DNA of 14,840 nt from Promethearchaeota archaeon (GTDB lineage Archaea > Asgardarchaeota > Odinarchaeia > Odinarchaeales > JBHLKK01), in contig JBHLPL010000043.1 of assembly GCA_048939465.1 (NCBI GenBank), positions 1 through 14,840 on the forward strand, in the 5' to 3' direction. Below, piece after piece: positions 1-10,928 of this stretch. The position numbers and the translations under genes were made by a program. Under the pieces are notes generated by a model that had not been told where the DNA came from, did not search any database, and saw nothing but the letters and a program-made list of their open reading frames with translations. Numbering within the stretch: position 1 is the first letter of the stretch; the number at the start of each line of letters is the position of its first letter.

Positions 1-1353
1 CCAATGCTCTATTCTATAACGTACATAGTGACTAGATCAAGAATCCTCAGTTTTTTGCCTTTTTTCACGTCCTTCATTGTGTGTTGGGTGAATAACAGAA
101 ATCTTGAGAGATGGCTAGTCGGATATTATTTTAATGGACCGTACCCCTGCTTATATGGTTTCATGCTTTCTATATTAAGTCTCAGCTTGGTTTTGTTATG
201 GTATATCACTAGGCTTGACAGGTTTTTCTTTGCCGCATTCTTAACACTCATAACTACTCTTATCGTCTACCTTCCCTTTGCTTTTTTGAATACGATATAC
301 CTTGTTGTCGTTTTCTTCTATCTAAGGGACAAATCCTGCAGCTTAACCTCTTGGATAAAGAAAAACCTACTTCCAATAATTTTCTGCTTCAGTCTGGGTT
401 TAGCGGTTCTTGGTTACTACTCATTAGTGTCCGGTGCTTTTCGAGTTTACATGGAACATGTATTGGGTGAGGGTGGCGTTGGACCAGGTTATACTTTTCC
501 TGTGAGTCTTCTTTATATGGACATGGTTGGAATAGCAATAGTTCCAGCATTAGTGATATCAGTGTTGTCTGTTAAAATAGATGGTAGCAAAACCATGAGA
601 GCTATTTACATGTATTATATCCCTATGACTTTACTTGTGTTGCTGTCTCTGAATGGTTTTCTCTACAACTTTCTACAGTTCCTGGTTCCAAATCGGGTGA
701 TGGTCATAAGTAGTCTGCTTTCATGGTTAGTGATTGGGAGATTAGTATATCTTGCATCTCAACGTGTAGACTCATCGAACGTCCGTGGTACGCCAAGAGA
801 AACAGGAATGGACAAAAGAACCAGAGTGAAGACCTATGCAGTTCTAGGGATAGTGCTAGCTATCGGTCCTAGTTTAGTCTTTCAGTTCTCTTTATTGGCA
901 GCCAATATCTACGCGTGGTTTCCGCGCTCTTCCTACTTCACTGATGACATGAGCGCACTTGAGTGGATTAATATGAACGTGCCTCCAGAAGATCTAATAC
1001 TAAATGATTACTCTTTCACCAGTCTCTACTTGCAGTCGCTATCCATAAAGAATGTGACGTGTTTTTATTCTCTATCACTGAGTCTACAACAAAGAGTGAA
1101 AGATATATATCAAATATGGTATACACCGAATGACGAAATCTTGGTAAGGAATTTGCTTCTGAAATATGATGTAAGATATGTTCTAGTTACGTCCGAACCT
1201 CGCTTTCAGAATTACACATACATTGGAGGAACGGACCAATGGGTAGAAAAATCGTTTAAACCATCAGAATATAACGAAATCTTTAGTAGCTACGCATTCT
1301 TAGAGCAGGTTTTTGGAATTGGAAATTCGTCTGTTTATAGTGTGAATGCATAG
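1..1353 (+). CDS. Multi-pass membrane protein with C-terminal extracytoplasmic domain, probable GT-C-fold glycosyltransferase-like protein (5'-truncated by window edge)
   Basis: Frame is open from base 1 (cca atg ctc), so the true start is probably upstream. About 9-10 hydrophobic segments are followed by a soluble tail 'DDMSALEWINMNVPPEDLILND...LLKYDVRYVLVT', a pattern typical of the C-terminal alpha/beta domain of archaeal GT-C-like membrane proteins. Stop TAG at 1351-1353. Confidence 0.6.
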   Translation, partial: PMLYSITYIVTRSRILSFLPFFTSFIVCWVNNRNLERWLVGYYFNGPYPCLYGFMLSILSLSLVLLWYITRLDRFFFAAFLTLITTLIVYLPFAFLNTIYLVVVFFYLRDKSCSLTSWIKKNLLPIIFCFSLGLAVLGYYSLVSGAFRVYMEHVLGEGGVGPGYTFPVSLLYMDMVGIAIVPALVISVLSVKIDGSKTMRAIYMYYIPMTLLVLLSLNGFLYNFLQFLVPNRVMVISSLLSWLVIGRLVYLASQRVDSSNVRGTPRETGMDKRTRVKTYAVLGIVLAIGPSLVFQFSLLAANIYAWFPRSSYFTDDMSALEWINMNVPPEDLILNDYSFTSLYLQSLSIKNVTCFYSLSLSLQQRVKDIYQIWYTPNDEILVRNLLLKYDVRYVLVTSEPRFQNYTYIGGTDQWVEKSFKPSEYNEIFSSYAFLEQVFGIGNSSVYSVNA

Positions 1354-1423: not shown

Positions 1424-2494
1424 CTATATTTGACTTGCCTTGAAATAATGCTTCGCTGCTTTCCTTTCACCTTTTATCATGCGCATCAGAAATAGTGAAA
1501 CTAATTTTTTAAAATTTGTTTTGAGCATATACTTCGTGACTTCTGAATGTGGTACTCCTCTCAAGGACTCTTGAGTGTGTATTCTTTTTTTCCAAATCTC
1601 TCTCAAGTTTCTCAATACCCAGACTATTGCTTTTAACGTAGCACCAAGGAGGAGAGGGTTTTTTCGAACAATCAGATCACCTATCATAAAGCCTAATGTG
1701 GGAATCAGAGGGTTATACCTGAAGAGAAAGCTAAGTGCTTGATTTTTTACAGAGGTAACGATGCGATTCTTCTCATTGTGGAATTTTTTTATGAATGACG
1801 GGGGAGACGATCCTCCACTCACATGGTATATCACTGATTTTGGTACAAACAATATCTTGTAACCACGGAGCCTTATTCTCCAACTCAAATCTATATCCTC
1901 ATAACTCATGAAAAACTCAGGGTCGAATAATCCAATTGTGTCTATAATTTTCTTTCGAATGATTATGGCAGCACCTCTGGCACTGAAAATTTCTCTTAAA
2001 TAGTCGTACTGCCCCCTATCTTCTTCTCTCCAATCGCCTCCTATCCGTATTGAACTTCCATAGTAGTCGACTATATCTCCTACAGAATCTATAACTTTTT
2101 TATTCCCAAGAAGGAGGAGTTTACCTTGTGCTGCACCAACCTCTGGGTGCTTTTCCATGACAATCACTAGCTCTCTTAACCATGTTGGCTCAACTATCGT
2201 GTCATTATTGAGAAGAATAACGTATTTTCCTTTGGCATGACGTGCCCCTACATTGTTTCCTTCTGCAAATCCAAGATTTTTGGGATTTTTTATTATCTCA
2301 AGCCGCGGATTGCCTTTAAAAACTCGTTTAACGAACATAATGCTATTGTCAGTAGAAGCGTTATCAACCAGAATAATCTCAAAATTCGGATAGTTTGATT
2401 GCAGGACAGATTTTAAACACGACTCCAAGAATTGTCTCCCATTGTAATTTAAGATGATTATGGAGACGAGAGGGAGTCTGGATAGCGAGACCAA
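1424..2494 (-). CDS. Glycosyltransferase family 2 (WbbL/rhamnosyltransferase-like GT-A fold)
   Basis: Motifs VSIIILNYNG, ILVDNASTD, LLNNDT, EDIDLSWR, HxxG. Start moved from 2578 to TTG at 2494: it lies 7 nt after an AGGTGA SD and gives an N-terminus (MVSLSRLPLVSIII) comparable in length to the two paralogs. Confidence 0.9.
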   Translation of the reverse strand: MVSLSRLPLVSIIILNYNGRQFLESCLKSVLQSNYPNFEIILVDNASTDNSIMFVKRVFKGNPRLEIIKNPKNLGFAEGNNVGARHAKGKYVILLNNDTIVEPTWLRELVIVMEKHPEVGAAQGKLLLLGNKKVIDSVGDIVDYYGSSIRIGGDWREEDRGQYDYLREIFSARGAAIIIRKKIIDTIGLFDPEFFMSYEDIDLSWRIRLRGYKILFVPKSVIYHVSGGSSPPSFIKKFHNEKNRIVTSVKNQALSFLFRYNPLIPTLGFMIGDLIVRKNPLLLGATLKAIVWVLRNLREIWKKRIHTQESLRGVPHSEVTKYMLKTNFKKLVSLFLMRMIKGERKAAKHYFKASQI

Positions 2495-2624
2495 GATGCT
2501 TTCACCTTTCTCTGATTCCCAGCTTGTTTCCATTTCTCTTATTATTCCCATAATAATAACATTAAAAAATAAAAACAATTCTCCTCTTCCTTGAGAGAAA
2601 ATTCAAGACCTCATCCACCACAGA

Positions 2625-2636
2625 CATAACTTATAG
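2625..2636 (+). promoter_or_regulatory. Candidate BRE/TATA element for the GT2 pair 2673-4785
   Basis: CATAACTTATAG, 36 nt upstream of ATG 2673, in a divergent intergenic region. AAAGATTTGTAA at 2649-2660 is an alternative. Confidence 0.35.
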
Positions 2637-2672
2637 ACGACATTCTCTAAAGATTTGTAAAGAGGTTCTTTT

Positions 2673-3725
2673 ATGAGTAAAACGCGAAAAATACGCAATC
2701 TGCCTAAGGTCAGCATCATCATACTGAACCACAACGGAAAGCATTTTCTCAATCGTTGCTTAGCTTCGTTGAAGGAAATAGATTACCCTCCTAATCTTCA
2801 TGAAGTAATATTAGTTGATAATTCTTCTAGTGATGATAGTGTAGATTTCGTTAAGAAGCATTTTCCATGGGTGAAAGTAATTTCTCTTGATAGGAACTAT
2901 GGTTTTGGCGGGGGGAATAATAGAGGAATTAGACGTGCAACAGGAAACTACTTCGCATTTCTGAACAATGATACTAAAGTGATGCGTAGATGGCTAACAG
3001 AACTAGTAACTGCATCAATTGAGAATTCAACACCCGTATGTGCCAGTAAAACTCTTTTCATGAATGATCCTAGTATAGTAGACTATGGAGGTGGAAAGCT
3101 CACGATTAGTGGGAGAGGCTATAGTACTGCATTTGGAAAGAGGAATGTAGAAAATGTTGAATCTCCCACGTATACCGGATATCCTTGTGCTGCAGCCATG
3201 CTGATTAGAAAGGATGTGTTCTTAAAAGTAGGACAGTTTGATGAAGATTATTTCGCGTGTCTAGATGACACCGACCTTGGCTGGCGTACTTGGTTGCTCG
3301 GTTATACAATTCTCTATTGCCCTAAATCTGTTGTTCATCATGTAGGTGGGGGAACGACTGGAAGGAAGCGTATATCTCACACAAAAGCGTTTCATGGTCC
3401 GAAGAATAGCCTCATGAACATCTTAAAGAATCTTGAATTCCGGAATATCCTATTTGGTGTAATACTCGCATTTATTTATGACTTTATAGAAGTAATTTCC
3501 TTAATGAGAGTCAAAGACGCCAGTTGTATAAAGAAGAGAATAAAGGCCTATATATGGGTAATTAGGAATTTGCGACGCATATTACAGAAACGTTACACCG
3601 TGCAACAAAGCCGTGCTGTATCAGATAAGTGGCTGTATGCAAATAAGCTGATGGTTTCATTCAAAGATGCCCTACGTGAGCACATACGTCTGGGCAGGCT
3701 AAATCTTAGATTTTGGAAGACCTGA
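2673..3725 (+). CDS. Glycosyltransferase family 2 (WbbL/rhamnosyltransferase-like)
   Basis: VSIIILNHNG, ILVDNSSSDDS, FLNNDT, DDTDLGWR, HHVGGG; clear paralog of both flanking GT2s. Confidence 0.92.
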   Translation: MSKTRKIRNLPKVSIIILNHNGKHFLNRCLASLKEIDYPPNLHEVILVDNSSSDDSVDFVKKHFPWVKVISLDRNYGFGGGNNRGIRRATGNYFAFLNNDTKVMRRWLTELVTASIENSTPVCASKTLFMNDPSIVDYGGGKLTISGRGYSTAFGKRNVENVESPTYTGYPCAAAMLIRKDVFLKVGQFDEDYFACLDDTDLGWRTWLLGYTILYCPKSVVHHVGGGTTGRKRISHTKAFHGPKNSLMNILKNLEFRNILFGVILAFIYDFIEVISLMRVKDASCIKKRIKAYIWVIRNLRRILQKRYTVQQSRAVSDKWLYANKLMVSFKDALREHIRLGRLNLRFWKT

Positions 3726-3771
3726 CGAATTAATCAAAAACTGGAAGAATCAGAAGGGAGAAGTCTAATTA

Positions 3772-4785
3772 ATGACAGAGCCATTAGTCTCAGTTATAGT
3801 ATTGAATTGGAATGGGAAGAAATTTCTAAGCAAATGCTTGGGATCCTTGTTGGAGCAAGATTATCCAAATTATGAGGTTCTTTTGGTTGATAACGGATCT
3901 ACCGATGGCAGTATAGAATTCGTAAAAGAAAGACTTGGAAAGAATAGTAGATTAAGGCTCATAGCGTTAGATGAGAACTATGGATTCGCCAAAGGAAATA
4001 ACATTGGAATCAAGTACGCCCATGGCAAATATGTTATCATCTTGAACAACGATACAGAAGTTAAGAGGAGTTTTATTAGGAAACTAGTCAAAACAGCGAA
4101 AAGCGATGATCAGATTGGTAGCGTTACTTGTAAGATTCTAAGTACGGACAGCAGACTTTGGTTTAGCCAAAAATTCACAAACAGAGGATTCATTGTACCA
4201 TTCTTCTTACAAAACTTGACCAGAGACCGTATAAGACGAATATCTAATGTTTTTCGTTCTAACATAGGCAATGCTGGTTGTGCAGTACTCTATAAGAAAA
4301 GTGTCTTAAATAAAATTGGTTACTACGATGAAGATTTTTGGTCTAATTGGGAAGATTATGATCTGGGTTACAGAATAAACATTGCGGGATTTAAATCAAT
4401 ATACATCCCACTTCCCCTTGTTCTACATGTAGGTGGGGGTTCAGAAGGTTTTTCGCCCGACCGATATGTACGGATATATCGAAACATGCTTCTAACGTAC
4501 TTCAAGAATTACGAATCAAAGAATCTGCTTGTACGTTTTCTTATTTTTTTGTTTCTTTTACTCCCGCTGCACCATCTGGGATGGATAGTGTCTCACATAC
4601 TTTTCTATAAACCTGAGTTCGAGAAGCGGAAATCTTATCAATATGTCTTCTCACTTGTGAAAGCTTACACTCATTTTATGCGCAGGCTAAGACATTTCGT
4701 AGAGAAGAGAGTCATGATACAAAAACTAAGGAAAGACTCCGATAAGCAGATTTTCTCAAGAACTAAAACAAGATATATTGTCTAA
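3772..4785 (+). CDS. Glycosyltransferase family 2 (WbbL/rhamnosyltransferase-like)
   Basis: VSVIVLNWNG, LLVDNGSTDGS, ILNNDT, EDYDLGYR, HVGGGS; AGGGAG SD-like element upstream of ATG; 46 nt downstream of the previous GT2. Confidence 0.92.
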   Translation: MTEPLVSVIVLNWNGKKFLSKCLGSLLEQDYPNYEVLLVDNGSTDGSIEFVKERLGKNSRLRLIALDENYGFAKGNNIGIKYAHGKYVIILNNDTEVKRSFIRKLVKTAKSDDQIGSVTCKILSTDSRLWFSQKFTNRGFIVPFFLQNLTRDRIRRISNVFRSNIGNAGCAVLYKKSVLNKIGYYDEDFWSNWEDYDLGYRINIAGFKSIYIPLPLVLHVGGGSEGFSPDRYVRIYRNMLLTYFKNYESKNLLVRFLIFLFLLLPLHHLGWIVSHILFYKPEFEKRKSYQYVFSLVKAYTHFMRRLRHFVEKRVMIQKLRKDSDKQIFSRTKTRYIV

Positions 4786-4835
4786 AGAGATTTGACGAGT
4801 TCATTCACTTTTCGCCTCTATATTCTAAGAAACAA

Positions 4836-5531
4836 TTATTTTCTCAGAACCATAAACATATTGTTTATAAAAAAGTTCCCGGTGGCAACCTTGAAATCAT
4901 CGTATAATAAGGATGTTACAAAAGCACGCATAATGGAGCCTTCTTTGAACCTCTTATTACTAATTAGTATAGGCCTGAGCCCCTCCTTTCTTAAGAGCTT
5001 AACTACCTCCGTTGGATAGAAGTGATGAGGATGAATTCTATCAAACAATCCAAATATGACCTCAATCGGTTTTATGAATGATTTTACTGTATGCAGCCAC
5101 AGTAGTAGTCTTCCATTCTTTTTTAATACTCTAGAGATTTCTGCCACCACTTTCTTCGGGAAAATCACATGATCAAGAACATTAAAGCATATTACAATAT
5201 CTATTGATTGATCACGGAAAGGTAGCTTTTCTCCAGCAGCCATAATGTGTGGCGTTTTGATTTTGAATCGTTCCCAAATCTTACAAAAATCTAAGGGATC
5301 GATTCCTATTTTGAGAGGAGGGCGTATTGGATCAATAAAGTGTATTATCCCATACGGTCCGCAACCTACCTCCATTACGCTTTTTCCTCCAAAAAAACCA
5401 AAATCAATTTGAAAATTATCTTTCAGGAATTTTCGCCAATGAATTCCTGTCTTAATTGCTTTTACATCTTCTTGGAACCAAAATTCTTTTTCAGCTTCTG
5501 CAGCGATCTTCCACTTCTCGATATTGCTCAT
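4836..5531 (-). CDS. Class I SAM-dependent methyltransferase (Methyltransf_11-like)
   Basis: Motif I VMEVGCGPYG, acidic post-beta2 IGIDP, 'AGEKLPFRDQSIDIVICFNVLDHV', 'EISRVLKKNGRL'. Confidence 0.9.
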   Translation of the reverse strand: MSNIEKWKIAAEAEKEFWFQEDVKAIKTGIHWRKFLKDNFQIDFGFFGGKSVMEVGCGPYGIIHFIDPIRPPLKIGIDPLDFCKIWERFKIKTPHIMAAGEKLPFRDQSIDIVICFNVLDHVIFPKKVVAEISRVLKKNGRLLLWLHTVKSFIKPIEVIFGLFDRIHPHHFYPTEVVKLLRKEGLRPILISNKRFKEGSIMRAFVTSLLYDDFKVATGNFFINNMFMVLRK

Positions 5532-8363: not shown

Positions 8364-9005
8364 TTATACAGGGGCTTTCATGGTCTTTGCTTTCCGATAA
8401 GCCCCAATAGTCATTGCCACTCCAGTCATCATTGCAAGGCAAATCAGTATGGGGGTTAAGGTTATACCCCAAGGTGTGAAGTTCAGCATAAGACCCAATA
8501 AAGGAGTAACAGCCAGACTCAATCCAAAACTTAAAGCGATTTCTTCTACTGAATCCAGATCCTTCAGCGGAAAGATTGCAGTTGTCAAAGCATAACCAGG
8601 CAAAAAAAACACAAATAACGCACCTAATACCCATCTTAAGAACGCGGCGGGATACAAGTCTTCGGGTATAAGGAGGGAGGCAACAGTTGCAGCCACAGTA
8701 AACGTTAATGTTACCCAAAAATCTGTTGCTTGTGGGCTTTGAAGATAATCAATGAATGATTGCGGTTTTGGTGCAGCAAAAGCAGATCCCTCTGACGTTT
8801 GAATGTCCTTCTTGTGGAAGATTAGCTTACCTTTTTCTTTCATATGCGTTACTATACTTAGGACAGCCCTTTTTGGCAAATCGTATGCCTTCTCGAGATA
8901 AGCGACTAGATCTCTCACTGTTTTCAGTTCTTCTTCTTTGATTGCTTTTAAGATCAGTTTTTCTAAGACCGATTCATCGTATCTTCCGTCATCTTTTATG
9001 AGCAT
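8364..9005 (-). CDS. DUF1616-type 4-TM membrane protein with N-terminal winged-helix-like domain
   Basis: DUF1616 signature 'FLPGYALTTAIFP..DLDSVEEIALSFGLSLAVTPLLGLMLNFTPWGI..PI'. The N-terminal ~65 aa show a helix-helix-helix-beta pattern. ATG at 9005 (or TTG at 9008) follows a GGGGG SD-like run. Confidence 0.8.
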   Translation of the reverse strand: MLIKDDGRYDESVLEKLILKAIKEEELKTVRDLVAYLEKAYDLPKRAVLSIVTHMKEKGKLIFHKKDIQTSEGSAFAAPKPQSFIDYLQSPQATDFWVTLTFTVAATVASLLIPEDLYPAAFLRWVLGALFVFFLPGYALTTAIFPLKDLDSVEEIALSFGLSLAVTPLLGLMLNFTPWGITLTPILICLAMMTGVAMTIGAYRKAKTMKAPV

Positions 9006-9051
9006 CAAAGTCCCCTTTTTCGTTCAGCTCTGTTCTAGGTTTATGTTAATG

Positions 9052-9066
9052 TTTTATATTTTTTGC
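9052..9066 (-). promoter_or_regulatory. Candidate BRE/TATA for the DUF1616 gene
   Basis: Minus strand GCAAAAAATATAAAA, about 46 nt upstream of ATG 9005. Confidence 0.4.
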
Positions 9067-9160
9067 CTGGTTTTTTTGCTTGGCACGGTATTCGCTTTTT
9101 AATTATACCTTGGCAGAAGCCACTCAGAGCCAGAAACAGATAAAGAGTCTTCTAAGGGTG

Positions 9161-9174
9161 GTAAAACTTATTAA
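9161..9174 (+). promoter_or_regulatory. Candidate BRE/TATA for the 9213-10197 operon
   Basis: GTAAAACTTATTAA ending 39 nt upstream of ATG 9213; GAGGGAG SD at 9201-9207. Confidence 0.5.
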
Positions 9175-9212
9175 TCTTTGAGACCGACTCTCTTACAATT
9201 GAGGGAGACTTC

Positions 9213-9707
9213 ATGAAAAGGGCCGGCTTGATATTAGTCATAGGACTACTGTTTTTCCCTTTGCCGGAGACTCTCACTGCCGTGGCAAGTCAGCCGATTT
9301 TGGACGCTGAAGATTCTGTTGAGAATGCCTACCAGGTGATTCTAAACGCCGATAATGCAGGAGCAAATGTAACAGAATTAGTGGAGCAGCTAAATGTTGC
9401 TGTCGAGTTGCTTGGTGAAGCACGAAACATTTATGAGGTTAATCAAACCCACGCCGAGAGCTTGGCAAACCAAGCTAAGATAATAGCAGACGCTGTTCGT
9501 GAGGCCGCGTTAGATTTGTTGACAGATATACGATCAAAAGGTTCAATCTGGTTTGTTTTATTCCCATTGGGCGTTATATTCGTGATTGTTTTTGTGGCAG
9601 TTGCACTATACTATTCTTGGCGCAGCATGGCTGCAGAGGAGGAGGAAAAACTATTGGAGACAGAGATATCAGTCCCGGAGCAAGGTGATGACTGTGGGAA
9701 AGAGTGA
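9213..9707 (+). CDS. Hypothetical type-I membrane protein: signal peptide, alanine-rich helical ectodomain, single TM, acidic cytoplasmic tail
   Basis: MKR plus hydrophobic signal ending AVA/SQP; amphipathic helices (AEDSVENAYQVILNADNAGANVTELVEQLNVAVELLGEA); TM IWFVLFPLGVIFVIVFVAVALYY; good SD. Confidence 0.8.
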   Translation: MKRAGLILVIGLLFFPLPETLTAVASQPILDAEDSVENAYQVILNADNAGANVTELVEQLNVAVELLGEARNIYEVNQTHAESLANQAKIIADAVREAALDLLTDIRSKGSIWFVLFPLGVIFVIVFVAVALYYSWRSMAAEEEEKLLETEISVPEQGDDCGKE

Positions 9708-10197
9708 GGAGAGAACTGTGATGGGTCTCATTTCCATTGCAGTCATCATATCTGGCTCATTATTGTTTTATGCAGTAGTGACGTCACCGCCTCGGGAAGG
9801 ATTTCCAACTATATCTGTGTTAAATCAGGACCTGCTGGCAGTAGGTTTGATGCAAGCAGATAATGCTTCTCAATTTCTATTTCATGTACTGGTCCAGAAT
9901 TATTTGGGGCATGTAGGTTATTTCTTGGTGGATGTTTGGATGGGGCAGATCACTGGTGAGACAAATCCCCCACTTAACAGTTGCACTCATTGGGGAAACA
10001 TCAGCAGAATAATTGTAGATAGGGGGGAACACATGTTTCCGATCAATGACATGATTCATACTACTCAGCCGGTTGAACGGTATATTTACTATTGCATATT
10101 ATACGTTTTCAATGTCAATATAGGCGAGTTCGAGTATGTTCGTAACGCGCTTGGAGAAACCACCACGGTTTGGATGCAAGTCAATATCACTGCATAG
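9688..10197 (+). CDS. Single-TM protein with extracellular beta-rich domain, resembling the C-terminal half of DUF1616 proteins
   Basis: Start moved from TTG 9586 to ATG 9688 (alternatives GTG 9694 after a GGTGA SD, or ATG 9721), giving a short overlap with the upstream gene. N-terminal TM anchor, then 'PPREGFPTISVL...FHVLVQNYLGHVGYFLVDV', which recalls the E.F...L....V.N..G...Y.V.V pattern of DUF1616 C-terminal domains. Confidence 0.65.
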   Translation: MTVGKSEERTVMGLISIAVIISGSLLFYAVVTSPPREGFPTISVLNQDLLAVGLMQADNASQFLFHVLVQNYLGHVGYFLVDVWMGQITGETNPPLNSCTHWGNISRIIVDRGEHMFPINDMIHTTQPVERYIYYCILYVFNVNIGEFEYVRNALGETTTVWMQVNITA

Positions 10198-10269
10198 TCT
10201 AGCCGAGAGAATTAAAAATCGTGTTCTCAACTCCAACCAATTGGAACCGATACAAAGAAAGGGGAATCA

Positions 10270-10674
10270 CTAGCCGGAGTAAACAAAAAAGAAGAGAATG
10301 TGAAACCAAAGAATGATGTCGAATTTCTCGGATGCCAGCAAACTAACGATTTTCCCCCTCATAGCCGGAAGGTACCTTCTAGGAATATTGAAGCTTTTAG
10401 AGAAGAAAATACCCGTTATGTGATCCTACTTTTAAATAGGCGCAGCTTTGTAAGAATATCTTTTGAATTACCTTTGATGCTCAGTGGTTCGATGCATTCT
10501 ACTCCGTCGTAGAGATGATCGGTGCTCTCATTCGACGGTTTATTACTAATAAATGATACTAACGTCATTTTGTAGTTTTTGTTGCATTTAACGAAGTAAA
10601 AGGGGCCTCGCCAAGGATGGGTGCACCAGGGAAGGTATCTCTCTCCACAGAATCGAAAGCCACATTTTGTCCAT
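10270..10674 (-). pseudogene. Probable remnant of a GT4 glycosyltransferase N-terminal domain (two frameshifts, truncated)
   Basis: Three abutting frames: 10674-10588 MDKMWLSILWREIPSLVHPSLARP; then FYFVKCNKNYKMTLVSFISNK...KLRLFKSRIT (stop 10416); then ITGIFFSKSFNIPRRYLPAMRGKIVSLLASEKFDII (stop 10270). Joined, they resemble GT4 N-termini of the 'R.F...K.L..H..TLVSF ... Y.P.MR..I..LL..E.FDII' type. Confidence 0.5.
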
Positions 10675-10711
10675 CCGATTTCTTGCCTTAAATAAATGGA
10701 ATCGAAAAAGG

Positions 10712-10723
10712 ATTTAAGCCTTT
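10712..10723 (-). promoter_or_regulatory. Candidate BRE/TATA upstream of the GT4 remnant
   Basis: Minus strand AAAGGCTTAAAT, 38 nt upstream of ATG 10674, the same spacing as at 9161 and 2625. Confidence 0.35.
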
Positions 10724-10903
10724 AATCTTCCTAGGCTGTTTCTGAGTGTTAGGCGAATAACCGCATTTAGATTTCGCACTTCTGAGACTCTGGTAAGGTT
10801 TGAAAACCTCTTACAGGTAGCAGTTGTCCCCATACTCATTGCTGAAATCATTCTGACTCAAGACACCAGTGCACATTCGCTCCGCCTGATTTATCTGCAA
10901 TTC

Positions 10904-10909
10904 AAAAAA
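10904..10909 (-). terminator. Possible oligo-T terminator after the epimerase gene
   Basis: TTTACTTTTTTG on the minus strand about 20 nt after the stop codon at 10929; archaeal intrinsic terminators are T-rich. Confidence 0.3.
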
Positions 10910-10928
10910 GTAAACATTATAGCCTCAA

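Follow-up and report, generated by a model that had tools for sequence, protein, structure and literature searches.

A split DUF1616 membrane protein and a third gene, B, in Asgard archaea

Judging by homology, two genes of an Asgard archaeon, here called A and C, are the two halves of DUF1616, a membrane protein that is single-chain in other archaea, and they are accompanied by a third gene, B. All three lie within the 14,840-nucleotide stretch of DNA analysed here (the window), and their products probably form a cell-surface complex. The fuller reading that we prefer, tentatively and with a little less than even confidence, is that A, B and C make up one membrane complex, the Asgard form of the archaeal DUF1616 family (arCOG02884, COG4743), which serves as an accessory to surface glycosylation at the outer face of the membrane.

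Open reading frames for the three genes are all present where the preliminary description of this DNA had placed them. Gene A occupies positions 8364-9008 on the minus strand (214 aa from TTG 9008, or 213 aa from ATG 9005), and genes B (9213-9707, 164 aa) and C (9697-10197; 167 aa from GTG 9697, the database call, or 158 aa from ATG 9721) lie on the plus strand. The possible starts of C are GTG 9688, ATG 9691, GTG 9697 and ATG 9721; basic residues conserved upstream of the C helix, together with 14-nt overlaps of B and C at two further loci (L002, L016), favour a start that overlaps B, and the overlap of about 20 nt first proposed is accordingly acceptable. The lineage, on the other hand, needs correcting: the genome does not belong to TACK but is Asgard, with relatives labelled Hodarchaeota, Odinarchaeia or Helarchaeota. 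The datasets containing the locus are mangrove and sediment metagenomes, with no RNA dataset among those listed. A tblastn search with six GT4 proteins for remnants of such genes in the spacer at 10198-10928 returned nothing below E 0.3.

Gene A matches PF07760 with an E-value of 6.5e-29 and 101.5 bits, above the Pfam gathering cut-off of 31.6, but over profile positions 6-120 of 307 only, which correspond to the N-terminal four-TM core of DUF1616. Aligned against full-length DUF1616 (hhalign, 99.9%, E 3.4e-34), it matches residues 18-139 of P0023, a haloarchaeal DUF1616 protein of 328 aa. This N-half (8373-8732, minus strand; residues 93-212) comprises four TM helices with conserved LPGYA, E..S.G.S and NFTPWGI motifs, and the protein ends 9 residues past the fourth hydrophobic stretch. 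As 15 of 15 A orthologues share this end point, the stop does not reflect a local truncation. Ahead of the core, the AF2 model of A (pLDDT 77) contains a winged-helix domain, predicted to be cytoplasmic, at residues ~10-72 (8793-8981, minus strand), with helices at 12-26, 31-42 and 46-58 and strands at 62-65 and 68-71; it also gives a weak Penicillinase_R match (E 0.0011). It is this domain alone that matches solved structures; the four-helix core found no match among them and resembles PMT_2 and DUF6541 models only weakly (TM-score 0.53-0.54 over 82-86 residues). We considered whether the core could itself be a GT-C enzyme and set the idea aside: unlike those enzymes, it has four helices only and no invariant acidic residue in the first outer loop, the loop after TM1 reading PED, PEG, PEN, PGN, PQE, PVD or P-N among orthologues.

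The other half is less readily recognised. C alone has no direct Pfam match at E-values up to 1 and no NCBIfam match, and a shallow alignment of six C sequences aligns to DUF1616 with a probability of just 1.9% (hhalign, E 0.026). A profile of 22 C sequences, by contrast, aligns to full-length DUF1616 at 99.0% (E 5.3e-18), with C residues 11-163 corresponding to P0023 residues 166-326, and 15 of the 22 family members match PF07760 directly. Through this family profile, C covers the fifth TM helix and extracellular Ig-like domain of DUF1616 (profile positions ~150-305), and its AF2 model (pLDDT 93.7) indeed shows one N-terminal TM helix followed by an Ig-like β-sandwich. In VIA-align comparisons, the ectodomain scores Z ~11, tied among many Ig-like domains including CARDB (3idu). 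Several other identities were tried and rejected: a link to the TRAP translocon (8b5l_q and 8b6l_E; E ~1e-3, TM-score 0.47-0.49) is equalled by dozens of other matches and differs in topology; a type IV pilin-like protein would have a conserved Gly cleavage motif ahead of the helix, which C lacks; and the repeat proteins P0053 and P0059, matched by the C profile, consist of Flg_new_2 and fn3 repeats with a generic β-sandwich likeness.

Given that A corresponds to residues 18-139 and C to residues 166-326 of the same protein, the two are complementary halves. None of the DUF1616 matches listed from 201 Asgard genomes spans both, whereas most of the strongest 150 matches listed from a Halobacteriota sample span positions 1-307 and are thus single-chain. 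The preliminary description is borne out here in its reading of A as a four-TM DUF1616 core that stops right after TM4, of C as one TM helix with a β-rich external domain homologous to the C-terminal part of DUF1616, and of the euryarchaeal proteins as single chains. Single-chain relatives (PF07760/COG4743/arCOG02884), such as HVO_2173 of Haloferax volcanii and MMP0360 of Methanococcus maripaludis, share with A the four-helix core and the LPGYA, ER..S.G.S and NFTPWGI motifs, and with C the fifth helix and an Ig-like ectodomain with an invariant Asn. Unlike them, the trio divides these parts between two genes, in the window on opposite strands, adds an N-terminal winged helix to A and includes a third protein, B. 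All the Asgard matches listed show the split state, and in the operons B separates A from C; fission and fusion would fit alike. In the accessible portions of the literature on the DUF1616 family, neither the split nor gene B was found described. The nearest annotated relatives of C are C-half-only Asgard proteins of 162-172 aa named 'DUF1616 domain-containing' (WEU40280.1 of Candidatus Odinarchaeum yellowstonii and MHA1310986.1 of a Helarchaeota MAG), which match the C profile with E-values of 1e-5 to 3e-26; these types are recognised by Pfam and NCBI, whereas C of the window falls below Pfam detection.

Gene B encodes a small helical membrane protein with an N-terminal signal-like or TM stretch (residues 3-26), a helical region of ~80 residues, a second hydrophobic (TM) stretch (108-140) and an acidic tail predicted to be cytoplasmic. 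The predicted ectodomain is a helical hairpin bearing an A..AG.(N/D)V..L...LN.A motif and two sequons. B belongs to no Pfam or NCBIfam family, has no relation to or counterpart in full-length DUF1616, and no B-like ORF was found beside 80 haloarchaeal DUF1616 loci at E-values up to 10. Its structural neighbours in the Atlas are unrelated helical proteins. A polysaccharide co-polymerase (Wzz/PCP) was rejected as an identity: B gives no PF02706 match at E-values up to 1, its ectodomain has only ~80 residues, and the sole likeness is one of topology, a helical ectodomain between two hydrophobic stretches. Likewise, B-C fusions carry the name 'cell division protein FtsL' at JGI, which was assigned automatically and finds no support here. 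For Bathyarchaeia, where the preliminary description placed similar trios, the Atlas offers only leads, in the form of N-half-only and B-like clusters.

Across Asgard genomes, the linked A-B-C trio is found in families f1, f4, f12, f15 and f27, and f10 and f16 have a B-C pair with A unlinked. The layout itself varies: A diverges from B-C in f1 and f12, f4 and f27 have a co-directional, overlapping A-B-C operon, and f15 pairs A with a BC fusion (A<->BC); the B-C fusion proteins measure 338-341 aa. With the same three genes together in seven Asgard families, the arrangement goes far beyond chance, and the co-occurrence that the preliminary description had anticipated is confirmed. B is present in 47 of the 201 Asgard genomes searched, every strong match adjoins a C gene, and the families with B are the same as those with short A. 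Families with C only have no B (f9, 0 of 41 genomes; f2, 0 of 4; f23, 0 of 3).

Could the three proteins nonetheless be separate surface or membrane glycoproteins, for instance S-layer-associated anchors, brought together by co-regulation with envelope glycan genes and forming no stable complex? Many Asgard genomes (f9 and the Odinarchaeum-like f2) have C but neither A nor B, one (G012) has A but no C, and A and B-C can be unlinked, so the parts are not strictly obligate partners; the C ectodomain is moreover a generic Ig fold, and the complex prediction described below is weak. However, hundreds of euryarchaeal genomes encode A and C as parts of a single chain, several lineages have B fused to C and others have the two in overlapping reading frames, and A and B are distributed identically at family level. 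We consider independence of the three proteins quite improbable.

The complex prediction took A residues 85-214 with B and C, C being the partner. It scored 0.35 against 0.00 for the best control, a verdict of weak support on a scale where 58 of 80 solved complexes pass, as do 2 of 110 mismatched pairs; passes at scores of 0.60 or below came from just 7 of the 80 solved complexes, and from both of the mismatches that passed. At least 69% of contacts agreed among the three runs, with a partner pLDDT of at least 67. Replacing B brought the score to 0.00, so the scored interface depends on B, and the A-C contact as such draws no support from the score. Of the earlier proposal that A and C reassemble in the membrane with B as third subunit, the complementary halves and conserved linkage stand, whilst the assembly itself is backed by a weak score that is lost when B is replaced. 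The proposed topology, with the winged helix inside and the Ig-like and helical domains outside, fares better: it agrees with the positive-inside rule, with the conserved sequons of both B and C, and with the N-glycosylation of HVO_2173, whose ectodomain lies outside and carries four AglB-dependent N-glycosites (PMC8241124).

Between A and B lies a divergent spacer of 204-207 bp, in keeping with the ~207-bp region first described as holding BRE/TATA candidates for both strands. An alignment of four related intergenic regions has invariant columns at two AT-rich boxes, each ~45-50 nt upstream of a start codon. One, TGTTTTATATTTTTT (plus-strand letters; 9050-9064, assigned to the minus strand), lies ~50 nt upstream of the A start and is a candidate TATA element for A; the other, GGTAAAACTTATTAAT (9160-9175, plus strand), lies ~43 nt upstream of the B ATG and is a candidate BRE/TATA for a B-C transcript. 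A third element conserved in the four loci, CTTACAATTGAGGG (9192-9205, plus strand), sits just ahead of B; in it, a CAATTG palindrome is accompanied by GAGGG, a ribosome-binding-like motif 8-11 nt upstream of the B ATG. A scan for sigma-70 promoters and terminators gave counts at or below shuffle level, its bacterial-type models being uninformative for an archaeon.

This divergent layout with its conserved boxes brings to mind a membrane-tethered one-component regulator, in which the winged helix of A would act on the A/B promoters or on others of the cluster, with B and C as extracellular sensor or co-sensor subunits. By analogy with ArnR and the Sulfolobus archaellum, such a trio might tie glycan-gene expression to conditions at the cell surface. 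ArnR is a membrane-bound winged-helix activator of the Sulfolobus archaellum operon, with a HAMP-like domain and two C-terminal TM helices. The likeness, drawn from description and not from sequence, lies in an N-terminal cytoplasmic wHTH on TM helices and a context of cell-surface genes; the HAMP-like domain and the two C-terminal TM helices set ArnR apart from A, for which DNA binding is putative. Several observations favour regulation. A has a predicted cytoplasmic winged-helix fold joined to four TM helices, and the domain stands at the N-terminus of all the short Asgard A proteins that we aligned or looked at (A4, L106), whereas single-chain proteins of Halobacteriota do not have the length for it. 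By VIA-align, the fold matches winged helices that bind DNA at Z 8.6-10.4 (10.4 for SAMD1, 9.8 for KAT6A, 9.2 for MecI, and also BlaI). In the clade of the window the domain is basic, most members carrying a net charge of +2 to +9 and P0014 one of 0, and in Odinarchaeum-like genomes without A the C gene adjoins one for a soluble coiled-coil winged-helix protein. Yet protein-binding winged helices (cullin WHB, ESCRT-II, Rpa2, the MCM C-terminus) match equally, conservation of the putative recognition helix does not extend across the family, and the domain is neutral or acidic in distant orthologues (net charge 0 to -3). In f4 and f27, moreover, the genes form one co-directional three-gene operon and not a regulator-target pair, and the core family of Halobacteriota works without any winged helix. 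On balance, both a regulatory A and the proposed coupling to glycan genes seem to us rather unlikely.

The neighbours of the trio, by contrast with those of haloarchaeal single-chain DUF1616, are nearly always genes of glycan biosynthesis. Beside the trio or its parts we find GT4, GT2, sugar nucleotidyltransferase, UDP-GlcNAc 2-epimerase, NAD epimerase and Wzx-like flippase genes; in Halobacteria, DUF1616 adjoins DUF58 and a DUF4129/MG-like secreted protein and not glycosyltransferases, with rdfA also present at the Haloferax locus L064. Here a further explanation must be weighed. A secretion or membrane-remodelling system composed of a MoxR AAA+ ATPase, vWA (DUF58), DUF4350 and Ig-domain membrane proteins was predicted in 2015 by Makarova, Galperin and Koonin (PMC5898192), and pfam07760/arCOG02884 is listed as a component (PMC5898192, PMC6393860); the trio could be the DUF1616 component of that system, acting in trans with a copy elsewhere in the genome. 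The published listing and the haloarchaeal neighbourhood speak for this, as does the presence of DUF4350, MoxR and DUF58 together on another contig (C138) of the same genome, and in one Asgard genome A overlaps a DUF58-like gene (L113). On the other side, the published system is itself a prediction, the window contains none of its genes, the trio is unlinked from the C138 cluster, and 0 of ~15 Asgard trio or B-C loci examined adjoin MoxR, DUF58 or DUF4350, the neighbours at these loci being glycan genes. We regard a role in that system as unlikely.

A connection of the preferred glycosylation complex to GT-C glycosyltransferases (STT3/AglB, AftA, PMT/ArnT) and their accessory subunits is suggested by further fusions: in Asgard genomes, the A-type core also forms the N-terminus of polytopic proteins of 650-760 aa (L107, L108), and the L108 protein matches TIGR03662 (E 2.6e-11) and DUF6798. 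The window has a GT-C-like polytopic ORF of its own (ORF1, 1-1353), which lacks its N-terminus and shares its C-terminal domain with L108 (E 1e-6); its language-model look-alikes, a lead only, are the GT-C families DUF6541, DUF6798, AftA and STT3 (0.91-0.96). No ORF1 homologues were found by jackhmmer in other trio loci, and the polytopic proteins without a family that lie close to other trios show no relationship in BLASTP beyond weak pairs.

How might such a glycosylation complex work? A would supply the four-helix core and the added cytoplasmic winged-helix domain, and C the fifth helix and an outward-facing, glycosylated Ig-like domain. B, made just ahead of C, would be translationally coupled to it, as well as being fused to it in some lineages, and would add an outer helical hairpin and dock on C. 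On the external side of the membrane, we posit, the complex would work together with the lipid-linked glycan pathway encoded nearby. Most likely, it would assist a GT-C-type glycosyltransferase in decorating surface proteins or polymers, serving the enzyme as a partner or scaffold without catalytic activity. The four-helix core would be the point of contact with the enzyme or with its lipid-linked donor, whilst the acceptor, or else the cell-surface layer, would be held by the Ig-like and helical ectodomains. The trio might also have the sensing or glycan-export function that the preliminary description envisaged.

This account gives the winged-helix domain no role. A bolder version would give it one: perhaps an Asgard-wide, hitherto undescribed heterotrimer physically couples outer-face (GT-C-type) glycosylation to the cytoplasm. 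The task of the split DUF1616 and B would be to read the glycan at the surface or to hold it, and the winged helix would relay the state of that glycan to DNA or to cytoplasmic partners. We consider this a long shot.

A split domain family is by itself an ordinary evolutionary event, and the trio does not reveal a mechanism. Nevertheless, few archaeal membrane protein families of unknown function are as widespread as DUF1616, with arCOG02884 reported in 293 of 524 genomes (PMC6393860), and the Asgard split makes its function testable. It provides three 'Rosetta stone' links, between A and C, between B and C, and between the A-type core and large polytopic proteins, which indicate the pieces that should be in contact, and it introduces B as a new, obligatory-looking partner of the family. 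Moreover, in the archaea most closely related to eukaryotes, the split connects DUF1616 with genes for surface glycosylation. Should the trio prove to couple the surface to the cytoplasm, these archaea would have a transmembrane signalling and assembly module of a new archaeal class.

The three genes around the divergent promoter are, close to certainly, a split form of DUF1616 (PF07760) accompanied by an extra gene. Gene A (8364-9008, minus strand, 214 aa) matches PF07760 with an E-value of 6.5e-29, restricted to profile positions 6-120 of 307, and its AlphaFold2 model (pLDDT 77) shows a canonical winged helix at about residues 10-72 followed by four long helices; the C-terminus lies nine residues past the fourth helix, as in all 15 aligned orthologues. 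Gene C ends at 10197 on the plus strand, and its start is ambiguous (9688, 9691, 9697 or 9721); we favour an overlapping one, given that basic residues ahead of the helix are conserved and that B and C overlap by 14 nt in two related loci, which makes the B/C overlap of the preliminary description acceptable. The C model (pLDDT 93.7) consists of one helix and a β-sandwich similar to many Ig-like domains, such as CARDB domain 3idu (Z about 11, with many ties). Direct comparison of C with Pfam gave no match, and a six-sequence C profile gave a weak hhalign signal to DUF1616. An exhaustive C-profile search of 1.84 billion representatives returned 14 relatives: stand-alone proteins of 160-172 aa, above the PF07760 cut-off over positions about 145-305, and two of 338-341 aa, B-like in the N-terminal half and C-like in the C-terminal half. 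Some of the 338-341-aa B-C fusions P0056, P0057 and P0071 carry the JGI label 'cell division protein FtsL', an identity that no observation here supports.

A 22-sequence alignment of the C family, 15 of whose members match PF07760 directly, aligns to 18 single-chain haloarchaeal DUF1616 proteins with 99.0% probability (E 5.3e-18), placing C 11-163 on residues 166-326 of the 328-aa haloarchaeal protein P0023; the proposed homology of C to the C-terminal part of DUF1616 is thereby upheld. On the same protein, the A alignment covers residues 18-139 (99.9%, E 3.4e-34). As the two profile matches tile P0023, leaving only a cytoplasmic linker of ~26 residues uncovered, A and C are complementary halves of DUF1616, and there is good support for this arrangement and for the third gene conserved with it. 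That gene, B (9213-9707, plus strand, 164 aa), begins with a signal-like hydrophobic segment; a helical ectodomain follows (~80 residues, two sequons), then another hydrophobic stretch and, at the end, an acidic tail. B matched no family in Pfam or NCBIfam, and did not match P0023.

The window (14.8 kb) is a complete contig (C87) of a 1.96 Mb MAG (91% complete, contamination 3.8%) whose nearest relatives carry the submitter label Hodarchaeota, and remoter homologues occur in Odinarchaeia and Helarchaeota MAGs; the host is thus an Asgard archaeon, and not a member of TACK. The expected co-occurrence of A, B and C does hold across Asgard families. Among the fetched loci, the divergent layout recurs in the same genus (L002, L017), in L016 and in family f12 (L021, L024, L025); A, B and C form a co-directional, overlapping operon in f4 (L106, L109) and f27 (L115); A faces a B-C fusion in f15 (L023, L110); and f16 and f10 (L020, L114, L022) have B-C with A elsewhere in the genome. 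L016 is a second trio in the same MAG (contig C124, 1-2949), with A (3-224, minus strand) cut by the contig end, B at 411-962, C at 949-1452 and an NAD epimerase after them. Identity to the proteins of the window is roughly 55-64%, and this trio could be a paralogous copy or, at that level of contamination, a binning contaminant.

PF07760 matched 95 of 201 genomes of the phylum, and the Asgard matches listed cover either the N-half (~3-145) or the C-half (~130-307), none both. It also matched 104 of 151 Halobacteriota genomes, where most of the strongest 150 matches (95 weaker ones lie outside these) cover positions 1-307, the ORFs being 300-350 aa long, with additional C-half-only copies among them. 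The B profile was found in 47 of the 201 Asgard genomes, which, as in the other counts, are related genomes rather than independent samples, and each strong match directly adjoins a C gene. The families bearing B (f1, f4, f10, f12, f15, f16 and f27) are those with a short A, and the B profile found nothing in the C-only families f9 (0 of 41 genomes), f2 (0 of 4) and f23 (0 of 3). C can therefore stand alone, and A and B occur as a pair with C. B being the middle gene of the operon forms, either of two histories can be considered: a fission may have been followed by insertion of B, or an ancestral three-gene state may have undergone B loss and fusion in Euryarchaeota. In Odinarchaeum-like genomes without A and B, the gene ahead of C, on its strand, encodes a soluble protein of 226-230 aa (L018 4868-5560, minus; L019 3818-4498, plus) that combines a long coiled coil with a winged-helix-like segment at its C-terminus. 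Locus L005 (6001-7400) holds a divergent relative of the short A (207 aa, 35% identity), followed after 3 nt by a 257-aa two-TM protein recorded as DUF7982, in place of B and C, with GT4, phosphodiesterase and Wzx-like genes around the pair.

Do the three proteins assemble? A single complex prediction, in which A 85-214, B and C (the partner) were all supplied with their alignments, scored 0.35 against 0.00 for the best control, lending weak support; 58 of 80 solved complexes reach the mark used, as do 2 of 110 mismatched pairs, and at 0.60 or below it is reached by just 7 of the 80 and both of those mismatches. The runs share at least 69% of contacts, with a partner pLDDT of at least 67. Swapping B for an unrelated protein brought the score to 0.00, so the confidence of the model depends on B, which fits the B-C fusions. 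The A-C contact of the proposed complex does not draw support from this prediction, and would instead rest on the single chain found elsewhere. We regard a physical A-B-C complex as likely but unproven; that the proteins form no complex at all, as the low score might suggest, seems improbable beside the B-C fusions and the single-chain A-C proteins.

The proposed topology agrees with several observations. The even helix numbers and the basic residues after TM4 place the winged helix inside, and the conserved N-X-S/T sequons in B and in C, along with N-glycosylation of the Haloferax homologue HVO_2173, place the Ig-like domain outside. According to PMC8241124, HVO_2173 is N-glycosylated at four sites in an AglB-dependent manner, and one site is noncanonical (a peptide ending GVGNQE, 2 PSMs); by our own reading of the C-family and single-chain alignments, its Asn is the residue that the whole family keeps invariant, N60 in C. 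The winged helix of A resembles solved winged-helix domains (Z up to 10.4), and no solved structure matched the four-helix part. In the spacer between A and B, two AT-rich boxes shared by four related loci, each ~45-50 nt upstream of a start codon, are candidate archaeal promoters, and CTTACAATTGAGGG is likewise conserved ahead of B. Could the trio be a membrane-tethered winged-helix regulator? The inward-facing domain would suit such a role, which we consider unlikely.

In the window, one side of the trio has three GT2 genes, two GT4 glycosyltransferase genes and a methyltransferase gene, and the opposite flank has genes for an NAD-dependent sugar epimerase and for topoisomerase VI A and B. 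Between C and the epimerase lie 730 bp without a long ORF (10198-10928), a junction of only 27 bp in L002; a quick tblastn with six GT4 proteins found no GT4 remnant there below E 0.3. Other families place the trio or B-C beside GT4, GT2, sugar nucleotidyltransferase, UDP-GlcNAc 2-epimerase, Wzx-like flippase and NAD epimerase genes, and the lone C gene of f9 overlaps an epimerase gene. An accessory of outer-face surface glycosylation is the best of several readings, and a tentative one.

Makarova et al. (2015, PMC5898192) assign DUF1616 to a system predicted to act in secretion or membrane remodelling, whose other members include a MoxR ATPase, a vWA protein and DUF4350, and a 2019 survey (PMC6393860) repeats the assignment. 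Haloarchaeal loci fit this prediction: the single-chain gene is preceded by DUF58 and a 700-aa DUF4129/MG-like secreted protein, whereas the Asgard trio lies beside glycan genes. Downstream genes in L026 and L058 differ from those in Haloferax L064 (5195-7832), where the next genes are rdfA (rod-determining factor A) and an SMC-like one; rdfA and the CetZ tubulin gene near DUF1616 in Halarchaeum L026 (5213-6556) are cell-shape genes. The trio could be a trans-acting part of that system, since the MAG carries its core (DUF58, MoxR AAA+ ATPase and DUF4350; contig C138, about 2110-5389, minus strand) and the A-only locus L113 has a DUF58-like neighbour; this core is unlinked to the trio, no MoxR, DUF58 or DUF4350 gene lies beside the Asgard trio loci examined, and we hold the idea to be rather unlikely.

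The glycosylation reading has one further lead. In at least 10 Asgard genomes, polytopic ORFs of 620-950 aa begin with the N-half core, such as L107 (697 aa; PF07760 positions 1-124, E 1e-37) and L108 (744 aa), which matches DUF6798 and, under the cut-off, TIGR03662 (Chlor_Arch_YYY; E 2.6e-11). A 5'-cut polytopic membrane ORF of the window (1-1353, plus strand, 450 aa, without a Pfam family), the N-terminus of which is off the contig, shares its C-terminal domain with L108 (E 1e-6). Its language-model look-alikes (0.91-0.96) are DUF6541, DUF6798, AftA and STT3, of GT-C type, a likeness we treat as a lead only; the lack of a homologue in the other fetched trio loci counts against it. The Atlas model of the A core resembles PMT_2 and DUF6541 clusters weakly (TM-score 0.53-0.54 over 82-86 residues), and strongly those in which the core is fused with LysM, or with Big_7 and PKD ectodomains. 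The LysM fusions come from Chloroflexota and the Big_7/PKD-repeat fusions from Methanobacteriota, and the core alone is a 160-aa Atlas protein, most commonly labelled Bathyarchaeota. The four-helix core looks like a membrane module that accepts varied outward-facing binding domains.

The split trio is, then, a variant of the already known, uncharacterised DUF1616 family, and its interest lies mainly in giving this widespread archaeal protein defined, testable partners, in the Asgard archaea.
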